The notes: generated from the sequence alone by a model not told the origin. 64,000 bases of DNA from an uncultured Thalassotalea sp. (GCA_964620605.1 CAZUHQ010000002.1:47010-111009); one strand, 5' to 3'. Counted from the stretch's first letter, positions 51,607-63,302 are shown. Made by a program: numbers and translations.

Positions 51607-52905
51607 TTAAGCGTTTTTCGGCAAGATAATATCAAAACAGGCGCCAGATAGTTGTTTGGCATGTGTTGCCTGGATCTTGCCTTTATGCCAATGGATCACC
51701 TTCTGGCATATTGCCAGCCCTAAGCCAAAGTGCCCCTGCTCGCGTGATCTGGCACTATCGAGTTTAACAAAGGGATCAAAGACCACAGCCAGTTTATCAT
51801 CGGCGATCCCTTGGCCATCGTCTTCTATCGAGATTTCTATGGTCTTACTGGTTTGCGCCAACTTGATTTGTACCTGGCTGTTGGCGTATTGAATGGCATT
51901 ACTGATCAAGTTTTGCAGTGCGCGATAAAACCAGTGGGCATCCAATCGATAGTGTTGATCCTGTGGCAATAATTCGCAGCTCAATGTTACTTGATGTTGC
52001 TGGGCCAGTGCTTGAAAATCCTGGCAAAATACTTTGATAAATTCGTTAATATTGACAACTTCCAGTTTTAGGTTGACTCCTTGGCGTTCCATGCCAGCAT
52101 AGGATAAAAATGCCGCAGTCATTTCTTCCATCCGGGTTAACTCTGCTTCCATGCGATTGAGATAATTATTCTTCTTTTCGAGACTATCAGTGTCTAATGC
52201 TGCTTCTACGCCAAAACGCAGACAAGACATCGGCGTTCGGATATCGTGTGACAGGCTGCGAGCGAGCAATTTGTTATCTGCCATTAACTTTTCAATTTGT
52301 GCCGCCATATGGTTGAAGCTCTTTTCCAGCGGATGAATATAGGAAAATTTATTTAACGGTACTCTAACATTCACGTCACCTTTGCCGATCTTGGCAGCGG
52401 CATTGGTTAACATATATAAACGCCGAGCCAGTGGAAACAACCATAACATTAAAATGGCACAAACCCCGATATATAAAACAGTGGTCAGTAAGAGGTTACG
52501 TTGATGATCTTCTTCCGGTACAGGGGGAAGCGCCAAACGGATCGAATAGGCTGGATGGTCACTGAGTTTTCTCAACAGATAAGCTTGTTGATCACTGGCT
52601 AATAATAAACCACCTGAAATGGTAAGCTGCTGAGTTAACGAACTTGGCAGCGCGATATTGGTATTTTCTTCTAGGCTCAGTGTCATCTGATAAGTGACGG
52701 CAAGTTCTGCCACTTGGGCAATTAGCTTATCGGCTGGAGTATGATTAAGCTGCTGACTAAAACCTTCGATAAGTTTTTTGTAGGCGATAATATCTGAGCT
52801 TTCGCTGAGATCACTATCGCTGACCACTAATTTATCCAATCCCCAACCGATAAGAAACAAGGAGCCCAGTACTGCGATAATAATACTGACAAATAACCGG
52901 GTCAC
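51607..52905 (-). CDS. Sensor histidine kinase (HAMP-HisKA-HATPase, RstB-like)
   Basis: Two TMs; LSHDIRTPM; NLISNA; EDDGQGI; GHFGLGL. Confidence 0.92.
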   Translation of the reverse strand: MTRLFVSIIIAVLGSLFLIGWGLDKLVVSDSDLSESSDIIAYKKLIEGFSQQLNHTPADKLIAQVAELAVTYQMTLSLEENTNIALPSSLTQQLTISGGLLLASDQQAYLLRKLSDHPAYSIRLALPPVPEEDHQRNLLLTTVLYIGVCAILMLWLFPLARRLYMLTNAAAKIGKGDVNVRVPLNKFSYIHPLEKSFNHMAAQIEKLMADNKLLARSLSHDIRTPMSCLRFGVEAALDTDSLEKKNNYLNRMEAELTRMEEMTAAFLSYAGMERQGVNLKLEVVNINEFIKVFCQDFQALAQQHQVTLSCELLPQDQHYRLDAHWFYRALQNLISNAIQYANSQVQIKLAQTSKTIEISIEDDGQGIADDKLAVVFDPFVKLDSARSREQGHFGLGLAICQKVIHWHKGKIQATHAKQLSGACFDIILPKNA

Positions 52906-52907
52906 TG

Positions 52908-53609
52908 CTAGTCGTTCCAGGCGTCAGCAACAAACAAATAGCCTTTACCCCACACGGTTTTGAATTTTTTCGGGCTTTGTGGATCGTCATTAAATATTTT
53001 TCGTAAGTTCGATAGCATGACATCGAAACGACGATCTTGCCCGTCATATTCGCGGTTTTTCAGCGCTTTAAATACGGTATCACGGTCAACCACTTCGCCT
53101 GCATGGCTGGCAAGAAACCATAAAAAGGCAAACAGACTGGTAGAGAGTTCAATTTCTTTGCCTTGATAGGTCACCCTGTTTGCTTCTTCGTTAATACTTA
53201 GGTTACCTAAGTTGATTTCATTGTTTTTTACTTCAGCTATATTTTGGTTTTTCAACGCGCTGTTGATCCGCGCTAATAATGCTCTGGGTCTGACCGGTTT
53301 GATAACGTAATCATTGGCTCCGGCTTCCAAGCCTATCACTTCATCGAATTCATCGGCTCGGGCGGTGAGCATGATAATAGGTAAGTTGGAGTTTTGTCGG
53401 ATCAACCGGCACACTTCAATGCCGTTAAGTCCGGGTAGCATGACATCCAGCAATACTAATTCAGGATTAAAGTCGTTGAGTTTTGGTTCAACCAGATCAC
53501 CGCGGTCAACATGCTCCACCAGAAAGTTCTGCTCCTGCAAATACTCGATCACCCAATCTGCGAGTGTTAAGTCGTCTTCTACTAATAAAATGCGATGTTG
53601 TTTATTCAT
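52908..53609 (-). CDS. OmpR family response regulator (RstA-like)
   Basis: LLVEDD; LLDVMLPG; DYVIKP; winged helix KTVWGKGY. Confidence 0.95.
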   Translation of the reverse strand: MNKQHRILLVEDDLTLADWVIEYLQEQNFLVEHVDRGDLVEPKLNDFNPELVLLDVMLPGLNGIEVCRLIRQNSNLPIIMLTARADEFDEVIGLEAGANDYVIKPVRPRALLARINSALKNQNIAEVKNNEINLGNLSINEEANRVTYQGKEIELSTSLFAFLWFLASHAGEVVDRDTVFKALKNREYDGQDRRFDVMLSNLRKIFNDDPQSPKKFKTVWGKGYLFVADAWND

Positions 53610-53635
53610 TGGTTAATCCCATTTTTACAGATAAT

Positions 53636-54064
53636 TTAAAACAAACGCCAGCGTCTTTTTCTCGGCGCTGCTTTATGTACCCAGCTTACATCAACTATGG
53701 CTTCGGCAAGCGTAATATTTTGTTCGCTCGATCTAAGCTGATATGCCACTTTTTCACTGGACTCGAATTCAAATATTAAAGTGTTGCCCCGACTGTTTTG
53801 CCAGCACTGCATCAGCTTATTGCTGGCTTTTTCATAAATACAAAAGTTGCCATGCTTAGCACTATGCCAGGATAAAGAAACCTGAGCAAAGCAGGTACGC
53901 CCCTGACGAAGTGCGACACAATTGGCCGGTTTAGCCTGAAAACTCACGTTAGTCTTGAGTGCCTGGGGTGGGATGGCTTGAGCACCAGCAAATGCCGAAC
54001 TCGGTATTATCCATAGTACCAGAGTAAAAAACCACGCAATTCCCTTGCCTAGCTTAGAATACAT
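53636..54064 (-). CDS. DUF3019 domain exported protein
   Basis: KPANCVALRQGRTC..V.LSW...FC....L..CW; C-terminal RKRRWRLF; located between mipA and the response regulator. Confidence 0.75.
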   Translation of the reverse strand: MYSKLGKGIAWFFTLVLWIIPSSAFAGAQAIPPQALKTNVSFQAKPANCVALRQGRTCFAQVSLSWHSAKHGNFCIYEKASNKLMQCWQNSRGNTLIFEFESSEKVAYQLRSSEQNITLAEAIVDVSWVHKAAPRKRRWRLF

Positions 54065-54911
54065 AAATTACCCCCGCCATTAACTGAGTCGCGCCCTGAG
54101 AGTCGACAATTGGGCTTCTGGCGATATTACTGCTGTAAAAGCTTTGGCTAAACCCGAGGTTAAAGGTCCAGGATTCAGAAATCGGGTGCTGGGCATACAA
54201 TTCAAACTGGATTTTTCCACTGCTGCCAGCCTGGTAATGTGGACGAATCTCTGATACTTCGCTGTGGTCGATGCCGACATAATAGTTAGTGACATCATTT
54301 GAATAGATACTTAACCCGGTATTTAAATAAATATCCCAGTTTCTATAAGGGATCAGGTGGCTGTAAAAAGCATCCAATACCCATCCCTTAGCGTCACTTA
54401 ACGGTGCCAGATTGGCAATATCGACGGAAAAATAACTGTCTTGAAAGTAACGGCTATAGCGAATGCCCAGGCCATCACCAAGATCTCTGGTTTTTAGTCC
54501 TCTAAGGCGCGGTAACTCTTTATCAGATTCTTCTATTATTTCTCCTGGATTAAAGCCTCCGATATAGGTTTTGTTGATAATGTCGAGTTCCCATTGATCA
54601 TTGTTGATCAATTGATAACCTACTTCGGCGCCGAGTATATGGGTATCGAGGCGGCGATAATTGGTCTGGATAAAAAAGCCTTTGTAGTAGAAATCGAACA
54701 ATAATGAGATATTGATATAATCGCCAAGGTAGCTTTGTTCCAGTCCTTCAATAATGGTGTCGTAGTAATGTAGCGAAAACCCCATTTGCGCTTGCCAGCT
54801 AAAGGTTTCGTTAAATACTGTGCTTTCTTTGCTCGGCTTTTTATCATTCGCGAGCACAAAGCCGCTGAAGCTAAACCATAACAAGAGGCAATAGCTTAAT
54901 TTTTTAAGCAT
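54054..54911 (-). CDS. MipA/OmpV family outer-membrane beta-barrel
   Basis: Signal peptide; amphipathic beta strands; NYYVGI; IARSPIVD; C-terminal Phe (YVF). Confidence 0.8.
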   Translation of the reverse strand: MLKKLSYCLLLWFSFSGFVLANDKKPSKESTVFNETFSWQAQMGFSLHYYDTIIEGLEQSYLGDYINISLLFDFYYKGFFIQTNYRRLDTHILGAEVGYQLINNDQWELDIINKTYIGGFNPGEIIEESDKELPRLRGLKTRDLGDGLGIRYSRYFQDSYFSVDIANLAPLSDAKGWVLDAFYSHLIPYRNWDIYLNTGLSIYSNDVTNYYVGIDHSEVSEIRPHYQAGSSGKIQFELYAQHPISESWTFNLGFSQSFYSSNIARSPIVDSQGATQLMAGVIYVF

Positions 54912-55130
54912 AGCTGTTATTTCCCATACCGCTTCGGTTGCAGTAGCTGATGATTAGTTATTATTTGGTCTGGAAAGCGAGCTGCCAGCCAATTGCAACC
55001 GTATACTAACAAATGTCATGGTCGTTGGGCAGCGTTGGACAAAAGAGAAATGTATAAAAATTGTAAAGATGTAAAAAGTAGCCCGCTTCCTTGCGCTGCT
55101 ACTATAAACGAAAGGTTATCTTCTTCTCCG

Positions 55131-55157
55131 CTGTTGCTTGTTTACCTAGCAACAGTT
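55131..55157 (+). repeat. Fragment or internally collapsed copy of the MITE-like repeat
   Basis: CTGTTGCT-TGTTTACCT-AGCAACAG-TT matches the element's right part (TTGCTTGTTTACCTAGCAACAGTT). Confidence 0.55.
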
Positions 55158-55193
55158 TTTGTACACCATTAATGAAAAATTTAGTACGCCTGA

Positions 55194-57245
55194 TTAAAAC
55201 TGAATTTTCAAGCCTATCGATGGAAACATTCCCATGCCTTCTTCGCCTTCGATCTTATAATCGGTTAAAGTTTCATTGCCATCAGGCGCAAAATAGTAAC
55301 CTGAGATGTTGTCGCTATTGGTGGCATTTAATATCGCAAACGACCACTGGGCGTCATAGCCCCAGTATTGAGTTTTATAGTTCGCCTGTAAGTCTAAGCG
55401 GTAATAGGTTGGTAAGGTTTTGCTGTTAAGCTCGCCATAAACCGGTAAGAAGTGCTCTTGATAATCCGGGTTTTCCTTTAACGCGATTATCGGCGTATAT
55501 TTCTGACCACTACGCACCGTTAAGCGCACGCCAAAATCCCAGCGTTCATTTAATTGATAGTTGGCCACCAGATTGGCTAACAGTGGCGTATCAAGATAAT
55601 ATTCAGTGGTTTGTTTGGTCAATTCATCGGTTCTGTCACTTTTTGACCAGCTTAGTGATGCCCAGCCGTACCAGCCATCAGCCAGTTCGCGCTCAATCAC
55701 CCATTCGATGCCTTTCGCGGTTCCTGACATATCGTTGCTGTAATGCAATTCGGCATTAATATCATCGTCATCTAGCGAGCGTGGTAGATCACCTAAATCT
55801 TTATAGTAAAGATCGATAGAGCTTTGCCACAAGTCGTTGATCTGATACTCAAAGCCGACCGAGTAATGCTGCGCCTTAGGCGAGTTTAATTTAGGGTTGC
55901 CAATTTTTCTCAGCACGGTTGCAACATCCGGAAAACGACTGTAGGAGCCTTGTTTAACCGTCATTTGCAAATCGTCATTAATCTGCCAGTTTAATGCCAA
56001 CCTGTGATGTAAAAATGATTGTTCGGTATAGCTATTGCGCTCGGCTCTAAGCCCCAGGGTAAATTGCCAGTCATTGCTGAGCTGCCATATATCATCAGCA
56101 TATAAAGCGACGGTGTTGCTATCTAGGGTATCGCTATCTTGAATACGTTCGCCTTTTTTACTTTCGCAATCCTGATCGTGATCGGTGCAGTAATAGGGAA
56201 TGGCATCAAAGCTGTAGTCGGTTTGTTGATTTTGCAAATCACTGCCCAGAACTAAAGTATGATGATTAAACCAGTCGATTTGGTATTGAAAACGCAAATT
56301 ATACTGCTCTTGGTCGATATCGATATATTGCCCTTGGCCGTAGAATTCTTTTGACTGCTCTCGGGTGTGACCGAACACCAGTTGCATGATTTTTCCGCCA
56401 TCGCCAAAGTATTGCCAGGAAATGCCCTGGTTATCAAATTGCGTGTTAACTTTTAAATCGCCAATCGAATCCGGATCAACCCGGCCTTGTTCCGATGCCT
56501 CTGAAATATTAATGCCGCCAGAATCGCTGGCACCACTTAAGGTAAAAGTCAGTTTGTGACTATCACCGATTAGCCACTGATATTTACCCTGATAATCGTC
56601 ACTGACCGGTGCTTTAAAAATGGTATAGCCGTCTTCTTCTTCACCTTCAGGTAAAAACAGGTGGATTAAACTGCGGCGGTAGGAAAAATAAAACGCCTGA
56701 TCTTCGGTGACTCCACCTTCAACCATGACGCCGGTTTTTAATAAACTGGCATCTAAGGTGGTCGTTATCTCCTGGTTTTTTGGATCCCTAAGCTGAACAT
56801 CGAATACCCCGCCGGTAGCATCACCGTAACGGCTACCGAATGCTGCCGGGTGGAGCTGAAAATCACGAACGACATTTTCATTAAAAATACTGTCGCCAAA
56901 CAAGTGAAAAATATAACCCACCGGCATGTCATCGATGTAAAACGCGTTATCATCCGGCGAAGATCCGCGAATTGCCGGGGCGCCGCCATCATCACCGCCA
57001 GCATACACTACCCCTGGCATACTAAATACCGAATTAAGCGGGTCGTGATCTAAGCCGGCAATGGCGAGTAATTTCTCAGTTTCAACACTGACGTCAGTAT
57101 AGGCTTGGTTACGTCGACCCTGTACTTCGATTTTTTCAATCGCATCATCAGCGGAAGTATTGAGTTCATCCGCAAAGGTTGCCGAGGACGAAAGCTGGCA
57201 GCAAATAGCGACAGCAACAGAGGTTAAAGTAAATTTATTGTTCAT
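55194..57245 (-). CDS. TonB-dependent receptor
   Basis: Signal peptide; TonB box-like IEKIEVQG; plug AIRGSSPDDN.FYID; FGSRYGDATGG; C-terminal IGLKIQF. Confidence 0.92.
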   Translation of the reverse strand: MNNKFTLTSVAVAICCQLSSSATFADELNTSADDAIEKIEVQGRRNQAYTDVSVETEKLLAIAGLDHDPLNSVFSMPGVVYAGGDDGGAPAIRGSSPDDNAFYIDDMPVGYIFHLFGDSIFNENVVRDFQLHPAAFGSRYGDATGGVFDVQLRDPKNQEITTTLDASLLKTGVMVEGGVTEDQAFYFSYRRSLIHLFLPEGEEEDGYTIFKAPVSDDYQGKYQWLIGDSHKLTFTLSGASDSGGINISEASEQGRVDPDSIGDLKVNTQFDNQGISWQYFGDGGKIMQLVFGHTREQSKEFYGQGQYIDIDQEQYNLRFQYQIDWFNHHTLVLGSDLQNQQTDYSFDAIPYYCTDHDQDCESKKGERIQDSDTLDSNTVALYADDIWQLSNDWQFTLGLRAERNSYTEQSFLHHRLALNWQINDDLQMTVKQGSYSRFPDVATVLRKIGNPKLNSPKAQHYSVGFEYQINDLWQSSIDLYYKDLGDLPRSLDDDDINAELHYSNDMSGTAKGIEWVIERELADGWYGWASLSWSKSDRTDELTKQTTEYYLDTPLLANLVANYQLNERWDFGVRLTVRSGQKYTPIIALKENPDYQEHFLPVYGELNSKTLPTYYRLDLQANYKTQYWGYDAQWSFAILNATNSDNISGYYFAPDGNETLTDYKIEGEEGMGMFPSIGLKIQF

Positions 57246-57323
57246 GTTTTTGGATAAAGTAGTTTTATTTGACGCTATTATCCATTGGCAGCTTGTATGA
57301 ATCTTGCGGCTAATTGTTGGGAA

Positions 57324-57349
57324 AATGTAGTGGAATGTGAGTTAATGTA
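57324..57349 (-). promoter_or_regulatory. 10-bp-period direct repeats upstream of the TonB receptor (OmpR-type binding site candidate)
   Basis: AATGT at 57324, 57334 and 57344. Confidence 0.4.
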
Positions 57350-57376
57350 AGCGTTAGCTCATTGCTGCGCCAGCTC

Positions 57377-57506
57377 GTTGATAACTAAGGATGTTGCTTT
57401 GGTAATAAAAGCAAGCATCACCAGCAGGGATGCTGGTGTTGAGCTTCCATGGACGGACTTGCAGCATCTTGCTTGTTTACCTAATAACAGCCATGATAAA
57501 CACAGC
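57377..57506 (+). mobile_element. MITE-like repeat copy 3 (left arm missing)
   Basis: GTTGATAACTAAGGATGTTGC...CATCACCAGCAGGGATGCTGGTGTTGAGCTTCCATGG...TTGTTTACCTAATAACAG. Confidence 0.8.
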
Positions 57507-57511
57507 CTAAA

Positions 57512-57588
57512 CGCCAGCTAATTTTCTGCGCTAGCTAATTTTCTGCGCCAGCTAATTCTCTGGGTTAGCTCATCTTTGCGCCAGCTAA
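57512..57588 (+). repeat. 17-bp tandem repeat array (consensus CGCCAGCTAATTTTCTG)
   Basis: Units at 57512, 57529 and 57546, a degenerate unit at 57563 and a partial unit at 57579 overlapping the lysR stop. Related units lie at 57352-57376. Confidence 0.85.
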
Positions 57589-58418
57589 AGCGGATTGAGG
57601 TTATCTATGAGTTTGCTCAGTTTCACCACTAACGGTGTTTGCTCCTGATAGGCAAGTACGATTTCACGGGTCAGTTGCATGCCGTTAATCGGGCGAAATG
57701 CCAGATCATTTTGCTCGATAATTTCTTTATGAGCAGGCACTAAGGCGCAGCCGAGTCCGGCTCTCACCAAGCCTAAGGCATAATCTATGGTTTGAATTTT
57801 CGCTCGAATATCCAGTTGAATGCCGGTTAAAGTAAAAGTATCTATTAAGGTTTGTAACGCGCTACAAGGCGTGCGCTGGATAAACGCCAGCTGGTCAAAA
57901 TCATGGAGCTCAATGGCATCCTTTAGCGATAGCGGGTGATTATGTCCCATGGCAACCAGGTAATCTTCCTGCCAGATTGCCTGATAGGTTTCACCGTCTT
58001 TTAATTCTTCTTTAATGATAATGCGGGCATCACAGGGTTCGTATTGCGGCACTAAAGTTAGCTCAATGTCGGGAGCTGCAGTGGTAAAGTCTTTTAACAA
58101 TACGCTCATGCGTTTAACCCCTAAGCCTTTAGTGACGCCGAGATTAAAGTTTTGCTTATTCGCTGAGGTTGCAAATGACGACTTGATTGCATCTGCCTGG
58201 CCGAGTAACTGCTTGGCGAGCGGGTAGAGTTTTTCACCTTGATCTGTTGCGGTAACGCCACGCGCATGACGGATAAATAACGCCTGATTGATTTCTCCTT
58301 CCAGTTGGGCGACCGCAGCTGAGATTGACGGCTGAGCGATAAAACAGGCCTTAGCTGCGGCGCTAAAGCTTTGCTGCTCATAAACGTTAATAAAATATTT
58401 TAGATGTTTCAGATCCAT
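57585..58418 (-). CDS. LysR family regulator divergent from gcdH (GcdR-like position)
   Basis: MDLKHLKYF..SFSAAAKACFIAQPSISAAVAQLE HTH. Probable ATG 58418 (track 58448). Confidence 0.92.
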   Translation of the reverse strand: MDLKHLKYFINVYEQQSFSAAAKACFIAQPSISAAVAQLEGEINQALFIRHARGVTATDQGEKLYPLAKQLLGQADAIKSSFATSANKQNFNLGVTKGLGVKRMSVLLKDFTTAAPDIELTLVPQYEPCDARIIIKEELKDGETYQAIWQEDYLVAMGHNHPLSLKDAIELHDFDQLAFIQRTPCSALQTLIDTFTLTGIQLDIRAKIQTIDYALGLVRAGLGCALVPAHKEIIEQNDLAFRPINGMQLTREIVLAYQEQTPLVVKLSKLIDNLNPL

Positions 58419-58450
58419 ATCAGGATTATTTCCTAATTTATTTGTCATGG

Positions 58451-58469
58451 CTATAGTTTTTTTCTATAG
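58451..58469. promoter_or_regulatory. LysR T-N11-A dyad binding site
   Basis: CTATAG-TTTTTTT-CTATAG (ATAG-N7-CTAT) in the lysR/gcdH divergent spacer. Confidence 0.65.
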
Positions 58470-58620
58470 AAACTAAAGAAAAACTATATTTTAACTTTAT
58501 TAGTGAATTGCTTAACCTTTAGCCCACTTGGTAAAACCACTTAATTTAGCGCGTGTTGAGCTTTTAACCTGGTGTTGGTAGTAAAGATCAATATGCATAC
58601 TGCAATAATCAGGAAATATT

Positions 58621-59808
58621 ATGTCAAACGTATCATCAAAACCTAGTTTTAACTGGCAAGACCCATTACTACTTGATTCTTTATTATCGGAAGAGGAGCG
58701 GATGATCCGTGATAGTGCTCATCAGTACTGTCAGGAGAAATTAATGCCGCGGGTGCTAGAAGCGAATCGCAATGAAACGTTTGACCCTGAGATCATGCGT
58801 GAGCTTGGCGAACTTGGTTTACTCGGTTGTACTATCGAAGAAAAATACGGCTGCGCGAACGTTAACTATGTGACTTATGGCCTGATTGCCCGTGAAGTTG
58901 AGCGGGTTGACAGCGGCTACCGCAGTGCGATGAGTGTTCAGTCATCATTAGTGATGCATCCGATTTATGCCTATGGCACCGAAGAGCAAAAAATGAAGTA
59001 TTTGCCTAAGCTGGCAACCGGTGAATTGATTGGCTGTTTTGGTTTAACCGAGCCAAATTCCGGTTCAGATCCAGCGAGCTTATCGACCCGTGCGGTAAAA
59101 GTAGATGGCGGCTATCGCTTAACTGGTAACAAAATGTGGATCACTAACTCACCAATTGCCGATGTCTTTATCATCTGGGCCAAGTTAGATGGCGTGATCA
59201 AGGGCTTTATTCTCGAAAAAGGCATAGAAGGACTGTCGGCACCGAAAATTGAAGGTAAGTTTTCATTGCGTGCTTCGATCACAGGTGAAGTGGTAATGGA
59301 TAATGTTTTCGTTCCGGAAGAAAATTTATTGCCGCATGTTCAAGGGCTATCCGGGCCATTTGGCTGCTTGAACAAAGCACGTTACGGCATTTCCTGGGGC
59401 GCTTTAGGCGCTGCTGAATATTGCTGGCATGCCGCCAGACAATACACTCTTGATCGTGAACAGTTTGGTCGTCCATTAGCGGCAACTCAGCTGGTACAGA
59501 AAAAACTGGCGGATATGCAAACTGAAATCACCACGGCACTTTTTGCCAGTTTGCAGGTCGGGCGGTTAATGGATGCCGGCACTTTAGCGCCGGAAGCGAT
59601 TTCTCTGGTTAAACGTAACTCTTGTGGCAAGGCACTGGAAATTGCTCGTATCGCTCGTGATATGCACGGTGGCAATGGTATTGCAGATGAGTTCCACGTT
59701 ATTCGCCATATGATTAACCTCGAAGCGGTTAATACCTATGAAGGCACACATGATATTCATGCGCTGATCTTGGGTCGTGCTCAAACTGGCATTCAGGCAT
59801 TTTTCTAA
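58621..59808 (+). CDS. gcdH: Glutaryl-CoA dehydrogenase
   Basis: [22 protein letters not shown]; [18 protein letters not shown]; [12 protein letters not shown]; [15 protein letters not shown], the GCDH signature with catalytic Glu. Confidence 0.93.
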
Positions 59809-59817
59809 CGGCTGCTT

Positions 59818-59944
59818 GTTGATAACTAAGGATGTTGATTGGCTAATAAAAGCAAGCATCACCAGCAGGGATGCTGGTGTTGAGCTTCCAAGGATGGACT
59901 TTCAGCGTCTTGCTTGTTTACCTAACAACAGTTCTTGGGACATA
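59818..59944 (+). mobile_element. MITE-like repeat copy 4 (left arm missing)
   Basis: Same core as copy 3, with an identical run TAATAAAAGCAAGCATCACCAGCAGGGATGCTGGTGTTGAGCTTCCA; inserted between gcdH and the E1 gene. Confidence 0.8.
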
Positions 59945-59982
59945 AACAAAAGCAATAATTAGCAACTAGTAGGTAAAGTGCC

Positions 59983-62235
59983 ATGTCTGATCGCAATCAG
60001 AGTTTAAAAGAAAACTTTATTCGTTGTGTCGAGCAACAGCAACTGCCAGCGCTTAGCGTCAATTTAATCCCGGAGCAAGTGGGGCTGTCGGCGGCTGAGT
60101 TGGTGGATTTATTCGAAACTCAGGTCATCAGTCGCCATCTCGATTTACACTCGCGGGTGATGCAAAAAAATGGTCAAAGCTTTTATACCATCGGCAGTTC
60201 AGGGCATGAAGGCAATGCTGCCAGTGCAAAAGCATTTCGGCCAAGCGATATGGCATTTTTGCATTATCGCAGTGGCGCTTTTGCCATACAGCGCGCAAAG
60301 CAAGTTGATGGTCAAACTTCGATTTACGACATGCTATTGTCGTTTGCCGCCTCAAAAGACGATCCTATCTCAGGGGGGCGTCATAAGGTCTTAGGCAGTA
60401 AAGCATTAGCGATCCCACCGCAAACCAGCACCATAGCGTCGCATTTACCAAAAGCTATGGGAGCGGCGTTTTCTGTCGGCCTGGCAAAGCGCTTAAACCA
60501 TCAGGGGGAATTACCGAACGATAGTGTGGTGGTTTGCAGTTTTGGCGATGCTTCGTCGAACCATTCTACTGCCCAAGGGGCGATTAACAGTGCGGCCTGG
60601 GCGTCTTATCAATCGGTTCCTATGCCGATCGTCTTTGTCTGTGAAGATAACGGTATCGGCATTTCAACCTCAACGCCTAATGGCTGGGTTGAGGCCAACT
60701 ATAAAAATCGCGCCGGATTAGTGTATCTCAGCTGTGATGGTTTGAATGTTTTAGATACTTATCAAACAACGTTGCAGGCGGCGAAAATAGCGCGTGAGAA
60801 AAAAGTACCGGTATTTTTACACGTTAAATTGATTCGCTTATTAGGCCATGCCGGGTCGGATGCCGAGTTTGTTTATCGCAAAGAACAGCAAATTGATGAT
60901 AATGAACGCAATGATCCACTGCTGCATACTGCCCGTATTTTACTCGATAATGAAATTTTAACTCAAAAGCAAATTGTCGATATTTATCAAAATGTTGCCG
61001 AGAGAGTGGTCAGTGTTGCCGAACAGGTAGTCACTAAACCAAGACTAGAAAGTGCCGAGCAGGTGATGGCAAGTCTTGCGCCTACTATTGAAAATGCTGC
61101 GCAATCATGCTCCCCGGTGGATGAGCAGCAGCGCATGAAATTATTTGCTCATGACAAGCATAATTTAGCGAAAAAGCAGCATCTGGCGAAAATTATTAAC
61201 TGGACGCTGATTGATGTCATGGCAGAGTACAGCAATGTTGTGCTGCTTGGTGAAGACATTGCCCGCAAAGGCGGGGTTTATAATGTTACGACCAAGTTAG
61301 TTGACCGTTTTGGTAAAAACCGGGTGATAAATACCTTGCTTGATGAACAATCGATTCTTGGCGGCGCGATTGGCCTGGCGCATAACGGTTTTGTGCCGAT
61401 CCCTGAAATTCAATTTCTCGCATATGTTCATAACGCGGAAGATCAGATTCGCGGCGAAGCGGCGACCTTATCTTTCTTTAGTAAAGGGCAATATACCAAC
61501 CCTATGGTGATCCGCATTGCCGGTCTTGCCTATCAAAAAGGCTTTGGCGGCCATTTTCATAATGATAATTCTTTTGCGGTATTTCGTGATATTCCAGGGG
61601 TTATTCTGGCTTGCCCATCTAATGGCGAAGATGCCCAGCAGATGCTAAGAACTTGTGTTCGTCTGGCACAGGAACAGCAAAGGGTGGTAGTTTTTCTTGA
61701 GCCCATCGCCTTGTATATGACTAAAGATTTGCATCAGGAAGGGGATGGTTTGTGGACCTTTGATTATCAAGTGCCAACTAAAGAAAGCCGCAGCGAAGAA
61801 TTATCACAGCAGATGTCGGTTAAGGTTGCCGGTGATGGTGATGAGTTATGTATTTTAACTTACGGTAATGGTTATTACCTGTCGCGTCAGGCACAAAAAG
61901 AATTGCAGCAGCAAGGTATCAAGTCACGAGTCGTTGATCTGCGCTGGCTGGCACCGCTCGATGAAACCGGCATCATTAATCAGGTTAACGGCTGTGACAA
62001 GGTATTAATTGTTGATGAATGTCGGCAAACCGGTTCATTGAGTGAAGCCTTGATGGCGTTAATTGCTGAGCATTGCCCGGATAAAGCGTCTGGCAATATA
62101 GAGCGACTATGCGCACAGGACAGTTTTATTCCGTTAGGCAGCGCCGCTTACCATGTCTTACCGTCAAAAGGTGACATTATTAACCGTGCATTGGCTTTGT
62201 GTCAGCATGAAAAAATAACAAGGAAAGCGATATGA
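59983..62235 (+). CDS. Fused E1 alpha+beta ThDP-dependent 2-oxoacid dehydrogenase component
   Basis: Alpha part: SGHEG, HYRS, ThDP motif GDASSNH-X-EDNG, RLLGHAGSD. Beta part: GEDIARKGGVY, NTLLDEQ, EIQFLAY, GGHFHND, VVDLRWLAPLD. Confidence 0.9.
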   Translation: MSDRNQSLKENFIRCVEQQQLPALSVNLIPEQVGLSAAELVDLFETQVISRHLDLHSRVMQKNGQSFYTIGSSGHEGNAASAKAFRPSDMAFLHYRSGAFAIQRAKQVDGQTSIYDMLLSFAASKDDPISGGRHKVLGSKALAIPPQTSTIASHLPKAMGAAFSVGLAKRLNHQGELPNDSVVVCSFGDASSNHSTAQGAINSAAWASYQSVPMPIVFVCEDNGIGISTSTPNGWVEANYKNRAGLVYLSCDGLNVLDTYQTTLQAAKIAREKKVPVFLHVKLIRLLGHAGSDAEFVYRKEQQIDDNERNDPLLHTARILLDNEILTQKQIVDIYQNVAERVVSVAEQVVTKPRLESAEQVMASLAPTIENAAQSCSPVDEQQRMKLFAHDKHNLAKKQHLAKIINWTLIDVMAEYSNVVLLGEDIARKGGVYNVTTKLVDRFGKNRVINTLLDEQSILGGAIGLAHNGFVPIPEIQFLAYVHNAEDQIRGEAATLSFFSKGQYTNPMVIRIAGLAYQKGFGGHFHNDNSFAVFRDIPGVILACPSNGEDAQQMLRTCVRLAQEQQRVVVFLEPIALYMTKDLHQEGDGLWTFDYQVPTKESRSEELSQQMSVKVAGDGDELCILTYGNGYYLSRQAQKELQQQGIKSRVVDLRWLAPLDETGIINQVNGCDKVLIVDECRQTGSLSEALMALIAEHCPDKASGNIERLCAQDSFIPLGSAAYHVLPSKGDIINRALALCQHEKITRKAI

Positions 62236-63302
62236 CCAAGAGTAAAAATAAAACTAACAGTGCCGTGAAGAAACAGCGAGCGGTGGTGATTTGCCCTGGT
62301 CGCGGTACTTATAATAAGGAAGAATTAGGTTATTTATCGCGTTTTCACAGTGATAAGTCATCCTTTATCCAGCATATCGACCAATATCGGGCGCAGCAAA
62401 ATCAGGTGGCGATTGCCGAGCTCGATGCCATGGATAAATACAGCATGCGGGTGCATACCGCCGGCGAAAATGCTTCGGCGCTGATTTATGCCTGTGCCCA
62501 TGGTGATTTTCAGTCAATCGATACCGAACATTACGAGATAGTAGCGGTAACCGGTAATTCCATGGGCTGGTATATCGCGCTGGCGGTGGCGGGAGCGTTA
62601 AAAGCCTATGGCGCAATTGAGCTGATCAACACCATGGGTTCTATGATGAAAAATGGTGTCATTGGCGGTCAGTTGATTTACCCGTTGGTAGATCAAAACT
62701 GGCAGCGAGATCAACAGCGCGAGCAGCAGGTATTGGCACTGGTAAATGAAGTAAACCAGCGGTCTGATTGTCAGGTACATGTTTCCATTCATCTAGGTGG
62801 CTACCTGGTGTTGGGTGGCGATAAAAATGGTTTGCAGGCGATGCAAGACGCCTTGCCGGTGATCGATGACAGATATCCGATGAACCTGTTTAACCATGCC
62901 GCGTTCCATACTCCTTTGCTTAATGATATTTCAGCGCAGGCCAAACAAGTGTTATCGCCGAGTATTTTTCATGCGCCAACGGTTCCGCTAATCGATGGCT
63001 TGGGCAATATCTGGCAGCCGTACTCAACCGATTGCCAAAAACTTTATGATTATACTTTAGGCACTCAGGTAGTGGCACCTTATAATTTTAGTAAGGCAAT
63101 TGAGGTTGCTGTGAAAGAATATGCCCCGGATAAGCTGATTATTTTAGGGCCGGGGGCAACCTTGGGCGGCTCGGTGGCGCAATGTTTAATCGAGCATAAC
63201 TGGCAAGGTTTATCCTGTAAATCAGACTTTATTGAGCGCCAGAAGCAAGATCCGTTTATATTATCTATGGGGATTGCCGAGCAGCGGGCGTTAGTGATTT
63301 AA
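62232..63302 (+). CDS. FabD/ACP S-malonyltransferase-fold acyltransferase with atypical active site
   Basis: CPGRGT (FabD FPGQGS); GNSMG nucleophile (GHSLG); AFHTPLL; LGPG. Its ATG overlaps the E1 stop (ATGA). Confidence 0.82.
   Translation: MTKSKNKTNSAVKKQRAVVICPGRGTYNKEELGYLSRFHSDKSSFIQHIDQYRAQQNQVAIAELDAMDKYSMRVHTAGENASALIYACAHGDFQSIDTEHYEIVAVTGNSMGWYIALAVAGALKAYGAIELINTMGSMMKNGVIGGQLIYPLVDQNWQRDQQREQQVLALVNEVNQRSDCQVHVSIHLGGYLVLGGDKNGLQAMQDALPVIDDRYPMNLFNHAAFHTPLLNDISAQAKQVLSPSIFHAPTVPLIDGLGNIWQPYSTDCQKLYDYTLGTQVVAPYNFSKAIEVAVKEYAPDKLIILGPGATLGGSVAQCLIEHNWQGLSCKSDFIERQKQDPFILSMGIAEQRALVI

Follow-up and report, generated by a model that had tools for sequence, protein, structure and literature searches.

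Our analysis of a 64,000-nucleotide stretch of DNA from an uncultured Thalassotalea sp. (GCA_964620605.1, CAZUHQ010000002.1:47010-111009), which we refer to as the window, supports the view that three of its genes form a conserved functional unit: gcdH, for glutaryl-coenzyme A (CoA) dehydrogenase; a gene for a 2-oxoacid dehydrogenase E1 whose alpha and beta parts are fused into one chain; and a gene for a divergent acyltransferase of the FabD fold. The distribution of these genes is nested, with the FabD-like gene occurring within the set of E1 carriers and E1 within the set of GcdH carriers. Tentatively, and with somewhat less than even confidence, we read the unit as an operon that, under GcdR-like control by a divergently encoded LysR-family regulator, would turn 2-oxoadipate into glutaryl-CoA and then crotonyl-CoA, in an arrangement resembling that of actinobacterial OdhA. 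The host resembles Thalassotalea and falls in the Alteromonadaceae as GTDB defines them. An earlier annotation of the window, here called the sequence-only reading, had described the locus as a candidate E2-less 2-oxoacid dehydrogenase system.

The gene trio, its products and its neighbourhood

The four open reading frames (ORFs) of the locus, encoding the LysR regulator, GcdH, the fused E1 and the FabD-like protein, were all recovered at the coordinates given in the sequence-only reading (Table 1). The E1 is one 750-aa chain in which E1_dh, Transket_pyr and Transketolase_C all score above their Pfam cut-offs. Among solved structures it is closest to the beta and alpha subunits of the pyruvate dehydrogenase (PDH) and branched-chain 2-oxoacid dehydrogenase (BCKDH) E1s. 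Judged by its sequence, it belongs to the heterotetramer-type (alpha-beta) class of 2-oxoacid dehydrogenases, as a single chain, and it falls far under every NCBIfam equivalog cut-off, including those for PDH and BCKDH (e.g., 146 versus 321). An alignment of 75 family members bears out the earlier description of a single-chain enzyme with intact thiamine diphosphate (ThDP) and His motifs: the ThDP motif GDAS..NH...EDNG, the alpha-His (GHAGSD), the beta-His (GGHFHNDN) and the beta-Glu (LDEQ) are all at least 98% conserved. The catalytic residues of the beta part were also placed by alignment to 1qs0_B, and the alpha-His was assigned through the motif GH(H/A)xSD, which we take to be its signature. 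In relatives of this E1, the alpha-His and beta-His serve the reductive acylation of lipoamide, and the beta-Glu activates ThDP.

The FabD-like partner protein has no Pfam match at default thresholds, Acyl_transf_1 included, and scores 51 bits against the NCBIfam fabD model (TIGR00128), for which the cut-off is 260.9. Its AlphaFold2 model (pLDDT 96.4, with a 72-sequence alignment as input) matches 3k89 in Foldseek at an E-value of 5.6e-18 (TM scores 0.73/0.83, 14-20% identity) and many FabD structures at TM scores of 0.7-0.85, and the model firmly supports a two-subdomain FabD/acyltransferase fold. PGRGxY, GNSxGWY and H222/H226 are invariant in the family, as are the nucleophile elbow GNSMG (Ser110) and the catalytic His226 (NHAAFHTP); together with the Foldseek matches, the invariance of Ser110 and His226 upholds the assignment as a FabD-fold Ser-His acyltransferase. 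In FabD, Arg117 binds the malonyl carboxylate and Gln11 sits in the oxyanion loop. The position of Arg117 is Met in the window protein and holds no conserved Arg across the FabD-like family, and that of Gln11 is an invariant Arg (PGRG for PGQG). A canonical fabD (398 bits) is carried on contig C122 of the same genome, and there is support for the view that the FabD-like protein is not the housekeeping malonyl transacylase. Sequence searches of 1.84 billion representative proteins indicate that the family is compact and distinct from FabD, with 135 clusters at E ≤ 1e-30 and just 715 at E ≤ 1e-3. Public records label its members 'ACP S-malonyltransferase', 'malonyl CoA-acyl carrier protein transacylase' or even 'acyl carrier protein'; since these proteins lie below the fabD cut-off and are without the malonyl-binding Arg, these names are misannotations.

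The acyl-CoA dehydrogenase upstream is, on its sequence matches, a true GcdH. Over residues 8-395 it matches Burkholderia GcdH (3gnc) at an E-value of 2.6e-191 and human GCDH (1siq) at 5.6e-182, versus only 8.7e-49 for the non-decarboxylating Desulfococcus type. In one metagenome-assembled genome (MAG) of an uncultured Pseudoalteromonadaceae bacterium (L049:988-1956), the gcdH between LysR and E1 encodes just 322 aa and lacks nearly all of the middle domain of the acyl-CoA dehydrogenase fold; a second GcdH was not found elsewhere in this 88%-complete MAG, and the short gene is either decaying or an assembly error.

The association between the E1 and the FabD-like gene is far beyond chance. Among 80 loci fetched from species-representative genomes, the FabD-like gene directly follows E1 in every case where the contig is long enough, among them loci from Colwellia, Thalassotalea, Glaciecola, Alteromonas, Hahellaceae, Saccharospirillaceae, an Acidiferrobacterales MAG and many Bdellovibrionota/Oligoflexales, so that the pair is conserved together; it is adjacent or overlapping also in Shewanella, Sedimenticola, sphingomonads (Alphaproteobacteria) and other MAGs. 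This conservation across phyla rules out chance adjacency. In the window, the start codon of the FabD-like gene and the stop codon of E1 overlap as ATGA (62232-62235) behind a ribosome-binding site, AAGGAAA, as expected of the translational coupling proposed earlier. In a partial ORF from a metagenome (P0223), a Pro/Ser/Ala-rich linker connects a FabD-like domain to the C-terminal half of an E1 beta region; its beta part aligns with residues 508-719 of the window E1 (E-value 2e-12) and its FabD-like domain matches at 1e-48. A concatenated E1 and FabD-like query, scored on the FabD-like part, returned no long fused proteins. A second metagenomic protein, P0175 (391 aa), passes from an N-terminal stretch of the E1 beta region straight into the middle of a FabD-like domain; we rejected it as a functional fusion, and it probably arose by deletion or chimeric assembly.

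The gcdH gene adjoins E1 in 65 of the 80 loci. It is co-oriented with the pair in gammaproteobacterial loci, with LysR divergent, and divergent from E1 in Bdellovibrionota loci, at ~55% identity; the divergent LysR ortholog occurs in ~50 gammaproteobacterial and no Bdellovibrionota loci. Clustering of the ORFs across the 80 loci revealed no recurrent neighbours beyond LysR, GcdH, ArgR and unrelated genes, and the flanks of the Bdellovibrionota units are not conserved. Shewanella repeats the window layout of LysR, gcdH, E1 and acyltransferase. In Shewanella eurypsychrophilus (L105:985-10104), a module of MipA, DUF3019, response regulator and kinase genes adjoins these four genes, as it does in the window (51607-63302), so that a larger block is syntenic across families.

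Several sequence signals accompany the unit (Table 1). The candidate LysR box falls inside the 172-bp divergent promoter region between LysR and gcdH, and the hairpin over the last stop codon probably marks the end of the operon. The 174-bp gap between gcdH and E1 holds a hairpin with an 8-bp stem free of mismatches, a 4-nt loop and no T tail (59860-59879, CACCAGCA-GGGA-TGCTGGTG), which might adjust the ratio of gcdH to E1 expression through processing or attenuation. A promoter scan of the locus gave matches at chance level.

Table 1. Features of the locus and of other contigs of the same genome.
Feature	Coordinates	Strand	Remarks
LysR-family regulator	57585..58448	-	HTH_1 and LysR_substrate domains; divergent from gcdH, GcdR-like arrangement
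Candidate LysR box	58451..58469		Dyad CTATAG-T7-CTATAG (ATAG-N7-CTAT, T-N11-A type); sequence inspection, putative function
gcdH, glutaryl-CoA dehydrogenase	58621..59808	+	Three acyl-CoA dehydrogenase domains
Single-chain E1 (alpha-beta fusion), proposed 2-oxoadipate E1	59983..62235	+	PF00676, PF02779 and PF02780
Divergent FabD-fold Ser-His acyltransferase, 356 aa	62232..63302	+	Translationally coupled to E1
Terminator-like hairpin over the acyltransferase stop codon	63284..63309	+	11-bp stem, weak T tail; consensus scan only
Kynurenine-branch cluster	C13:11847-24300		Same genome, outside the window; under a LysR gene
Stand-alone family III CoA-transferase, 405 aa, SUGCT/GcoT-like	C25:17661-18878		No informative neighbours

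Nested distribution and the resident lipoyl complexes

Two sets of genomes define the distribution of the trio: an even sample of 121 genomes from the GTDB family of the window, and a separate sample of 151 Bdellovibrionota genomes. In the family sample, 96 genomes have GcdH, 68 have E1 and 61 have the FabD-like gene, and all of these 61 also carry E1. GcdH accompanies E1 in 67 of the 68 E1-positive genomes, the exception being the 88%-complete MAG described above, whose gcdH has an internal deletion. Of the Bdellovibrionota genomes, 10 have E1; nine of these also have the FabD-like gene, adjacent to E1 in each, and one carries E1 alone. In the Gammaproteobacteria at large the pair is rare (2/400).

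The FabD-like gene is thus missing from 8 of the 78 E1-positive genomes of both samples, and in these the E1 is intact. In seven family genomes, belonging to three genera, gcdH and E1 stand side by side and the FabD-like gene is found nowhere in the genome; no remnant of it lies downstream, gene order is constant within each genus, and the E1 is a complete protein of 737-750 aa with all its catalytic motifs. Between species of two of these genera (g329 and g350), the nonsynonymous divergence (dN) of E1 is 0.09-0.23 and the synonymous divergence (dS) is saturated, and the E1 has therefore long been kept by selection without its partner. This asymmetric dependence, with E1 sometimes alone and the FabD-like gene never, would be surprising were the FabD-like enzyme the only way from E1 to CoA. 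Since E1 remains intact and selected without it, the acyltransferase is an E1-dependent accessory rather than an indispensable substitute for E2.

An inventory of the lipoyl-bearing complexes gives this dependence a context. The sequence-only reading had noted no E2 or E3 gene in the window; for E2 this absence extends to the whole of the window's contig, on which we found no E2 catalytic domain (PF00198), while no search by E3 family was made. Neither an E2 nor an E3 gene was found in ~90 neighbourhoods of the pair. The genome of the window nevertheless has exactly three E2s (PF00198; contigs C29, C113 and C126) and no fourth. One stands in a PDH context with an 891-aa E1p and with Lpd beside the E2 on C29, one in a 2-oxoglutarate dehydrogenase (OGDH) context with sucA and sucCD, and one in a complete canonical BCKDH operon with separate E1 alpha and beta genes followed by E2. 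Well-assembled E1-positive family genomes have at least three E2s, and across the family no extra E2 co-occurs with E1; the Bdellovibrionota genomes with the pair have one E2o and a second, BkdB/AceF-like E2 with Lpd. The strong form of the E2-less claim is not supported by these observations, as both His residues of lipoamide acylation are kept, three lipoyl-E2 complexes are resident, and the FabD-like gene has been lost with E1 intact. The acyltransferase looks like an addition to E2/E3 machinery borrowed from other complexes and not like its full replacement; what survives is the softer version in which glutaryl is taken from a lipoylated carrier encoded elsewhere. In the simplest model, E1 would borrow both lipoyl arms and E3.

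A proposed route from 2-oxoadipate to glutaryl-CoA and its alternatives

GcdH acts on glutaryl-CoA alone, and the 2-oxoacid from which glutaryl-CoA arises is 2-oxoadipate. Because of the link to gcdH, and because glutaryl-CoA derives from 2-oxoadipate, we infer 2-oxoadipate as the substrate of E1; on the strength of gcdH adjacency and co-occurrence, the earlier connection of the locus to glutaryl-CoA stands as the most economical reading. The trio probably consumes 2-oxoadipate from the breakdown of tryptophan or lysine. A plausible supply, judged from its gene content, is the complete kynurenine to 2-aminomuconate cluster on C13. This cluster encodes tryptophan 2,3-dioxygenase, a KMO-like monooxygenase, kynureninase (TIGR01814), an ACMSD-like amidohydrolase, 3-hydroxyanthranilate dioxygenase (3-HAO; TIGR03037), a Rid-family deaminase and 2-hydroxy/aminomuconate semialdehyde dehydrogenase (TIGR03216), all three TIGR matches being above cut-off. 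It contains no lower meta-cleavage genes, which is consistent with a putative animal-type route from 2-aminomuconate to 2-oxoadipate. Of the 121 family genomes, 42 have 3-HAO, every one of them together with GcdH and 36 of them together with E1; its frequency is 36/68 in E1-positive versus 6/53 in E1-negative genomes. The link between 3-HAO and E1 is real but not exclusive, and the half of E1-positive genomes that are without 3-HAO must have another source of 2-oxoadipate. The window's genome also contains two ornithine-cyclodeaminase/mu-crystallin family genes and one short DUF1338 protein, full HglS not being found, and the CoA-transferase on C25 could provide a second, glutarate-based entry to glutaryl-CoA in parallel to the E1 route.

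Catalysis would then proceed in three steps. The data show the gene identities, folds, catalytic residues, conservation and nestedness; which lipoyl donor serves, and in which direction and between which partners the acyl group moves, is what we infer. E1 would decarboxylate 2-oxoadipate on ThDP and reductively glutarylate a lipoyl-lysine arm borrowed from an ordinary E2, the arm being reoxidised by the resident E3. The BCKDH E2 is the likeliest donor because it docks E1s of the alpha-beta type. The FabD-like enzyme, presumably produced 1:1 with E1 through coupling, would move glutaryl from the dihydrolipoyl thiol to its active-site Ser and then to CoA, so that an unrelated fold would do the work of the E2 catalytic core. 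In lineages that have lost the FabD-like gene, the acyl transfer would fall to the core of the resident E2 as a fourth, alternative step. We place only just short of an even chance the specific proposal that the FabD-fold enzyme is a non-homologous replacement of the E2 core, namely a serine transacylase that reads a dihydrolipoyl rather than a phosphopantetheine arm, or is acylated straight from E1, and yields glutaryl-CoA; if true, this would represent a new 2-oxoacid dehydrogenase architecture and provide the missing bacterial (possibly algal) 2-oxoadipate dehydrogenase. The enzyme's structural relatives all transfer acyl groups between thiol-bearing swinging arms and CoA.

Several observations weigh against this route. 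FabD-fold enzymes are known to act on phosphopantetheine arms, not on lipoyl arms, and we know of no precedent for a dihydrolipoyl arm as the substrate of one, so that its use here is conjectural; the identity of the lipoyl donor is likewise a guess. No LAT above cut-off, no convincing saccharopine dehydrogenase and no LKR were found in the window's genome. Of the 68 E1-positive genomes, 32 are without 3-HAO, and one genus has 3-HAO and GcdH yet is without E1. The genome counts come from related genomes that are not independent and describe a pattern rather than a statistical test. Sedimenticola, sphingomonads and other lineages keep the overlapping pair but not beside gcdH, and in one 2-Mb MAG carrying the pair no GcdH ortholog was found. 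In Sedimenticola and a sphingomonad, GcdH orthologs are present unlinked to the pair (79% and 72% identity, respectively).

Among the alternatives, the best surviving, which we still consider rather unlikely, is that E1 runs wholly on the resident E2 and E3, with glutaryl-CoA made by the E2 core in the manner of human DHTKD1 and its partners DLST and DLD, and that the FabD-like enzyme has a side role, either as a proofreading hydrolase that frees glutaryl-blocked lipoyl arms (the glutarate being re-activated by a CoA-transferase) or as a glutaryl-CoA:carrier transacylase. The persistence of E1 under purifying selection without the FabD-like gene fits this explanation, as does the stand-alone family III CoA-transferase in the window's genome; trans-acyltransferase (trans-AT) polyketide systems contain acyl hydrolases of the FabD fold that clear carrier arms, and PksD is among the weak sequence matches of the FabD-like protein. 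Against it, hydrolysis would waste the thioester, and the pair is kept in 90% of E1-positive genomes, translationally coupled, across phyla and with at least one fusion, a degree of retention that fits an on-pathway step better than occasional repair.

A second alternative, which we judge improbable, keeps the pair together but gives it another 2-oxoacid (branched-chain, as in database annotations, 2-oxoglutarate, 2-oxopimelate or an N-acylated oxo-lysine derivative), so that adjacency to gcdH would reflect shared regulation and not consecutive steps. The PDH and BCKDH E1s among the solved relatives of the E1, the lineages in which the pair lies away from gcdH and the pair-carrying MAG without a GcdH ortholog can all be read this way. 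The E1 nonetheless scores below all PDH and BCKDH equivalog cut-offs, the adjacency to gcdH recurs in two phyla with differing gene orientation, and GcdH is present in 67/68 E1-positive genomes; a branched-chain role as the primary reading was rejected because a complete BCKDH operon lies elsewhere in the genome. More improbable still is a truly E2-less, lipoyl-independent system in which acyl-ThDP is oxidised by an unknown acceptor and attacked by the FabD-like Ser, which then acylates CoA, since, despite neighbourhoods free of E2 and E3 and a pair tightly coupled or fused, domain searches found a redox cofactor domain in neither protein, the lipoamide-related His residues are conserved, lipoyl-E2s occur in every genome examined, and a selection-maintained E1 without its FabD-like partner could not be explained.

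Relation to known systems

Pseudomonas bypasses the conversion of 2-oxoadipate to glutaryl-CoA via HglS, and animals carry it out with DHTKD1. In the literature searched, we found no bacterial gene assigned to this conversion and no characterisation of the E1/FabD-like pair. If our favored reading of the unit as a 2-oxoadipate to glutaryl-CoA operon is true, the pair, widely conserved and tied to gcdH, would fill this gap and demonstrate that a fold from fatty-acid and polyketide synthesis can perform the acyl-to-CoA step of a 2-oxoacid dehydrogenase, and it would correct thousands of database entries that now read 'ACP S-malonyltransferase' or 'branched-chain E1'. The nested distribution further predicts an E1 that depends on E3 and lipoyl arms supplied in trans, with the acyltransferase as a rate-enhancing accessory. 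What is new here is this nested distribution with a dispensable acyltransferase, together with the analogy to OdhA, the E2 inventory and the tryptophan branch as a source.

The divergent LysR and gcdH, followed by genes that supply glutaryl-CoA, recall the gcdR-gcdH-gcoT operon of Pseudomonas, in which a divergent LysR gene and gcdH are followed by a family III CoA-transferase that acts on glutarate; in the window the supplier would instead be the E1/FabD-like pair, which implies a 2-oxoacid precursor. Unlike the E1s of PDH, BCKDH and acetoin systems, the window E1 is a single chain with no E2 (and E3) in its operon. The FabD-like protein shares its fold, GxSxG elbow and catalytic His with FabD and the trans-AT acyltransferases and acyl hydrolases, but it is ~45 residues longer than FabD and its family is never found without E1.

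In the animal 2-oxoadipate dehydrogenase, DHTKD1 works with a shared DLST E2o and the DLD E3. The window system would likewise convert 2-oxoadipate to glutaryl-CoA and feed it to a glutaryl-CoA dehydrogenase, with an E1 that has no E2 or E3 of its own and is proposed to plug into another complex; DHTKD1, however, is an OGDH-like homodimeric E1 with no private acyltransferase, whereas the window E1 is of the alpha-beta class and usually has its FabD-like partner. In actinobacterial OdhA/KGD, the E1 is coupled to its own acyltransferase, which has no lipoyl domain, and lipoyl arms are provided in trans from the E2 of another complex, with a shared E3 (PMC10415282). The window E1 is similarly coupled to a lipoyl-less acyltransferase, with no dedicated E2 or E3 genes alongside. 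OdhA has as its acyltransferase a CAT-like E2 core (PF00198), attached to the N-terminus of a homodimeric E1 of the OGDH type, whereas the acyltransferase of the window has the FabD fold and a Ser-His dyad, is encoded downstream of an alpha-beta E1 and is only rarely fused C-terminally; lipoyl dependence, established for OdhA, is suggested for the window system by the conserved His residues and the E1-only lineages. The window system thus resembles the animal enzyme in its proposed working and OdhA in its build, and is a member of neither.

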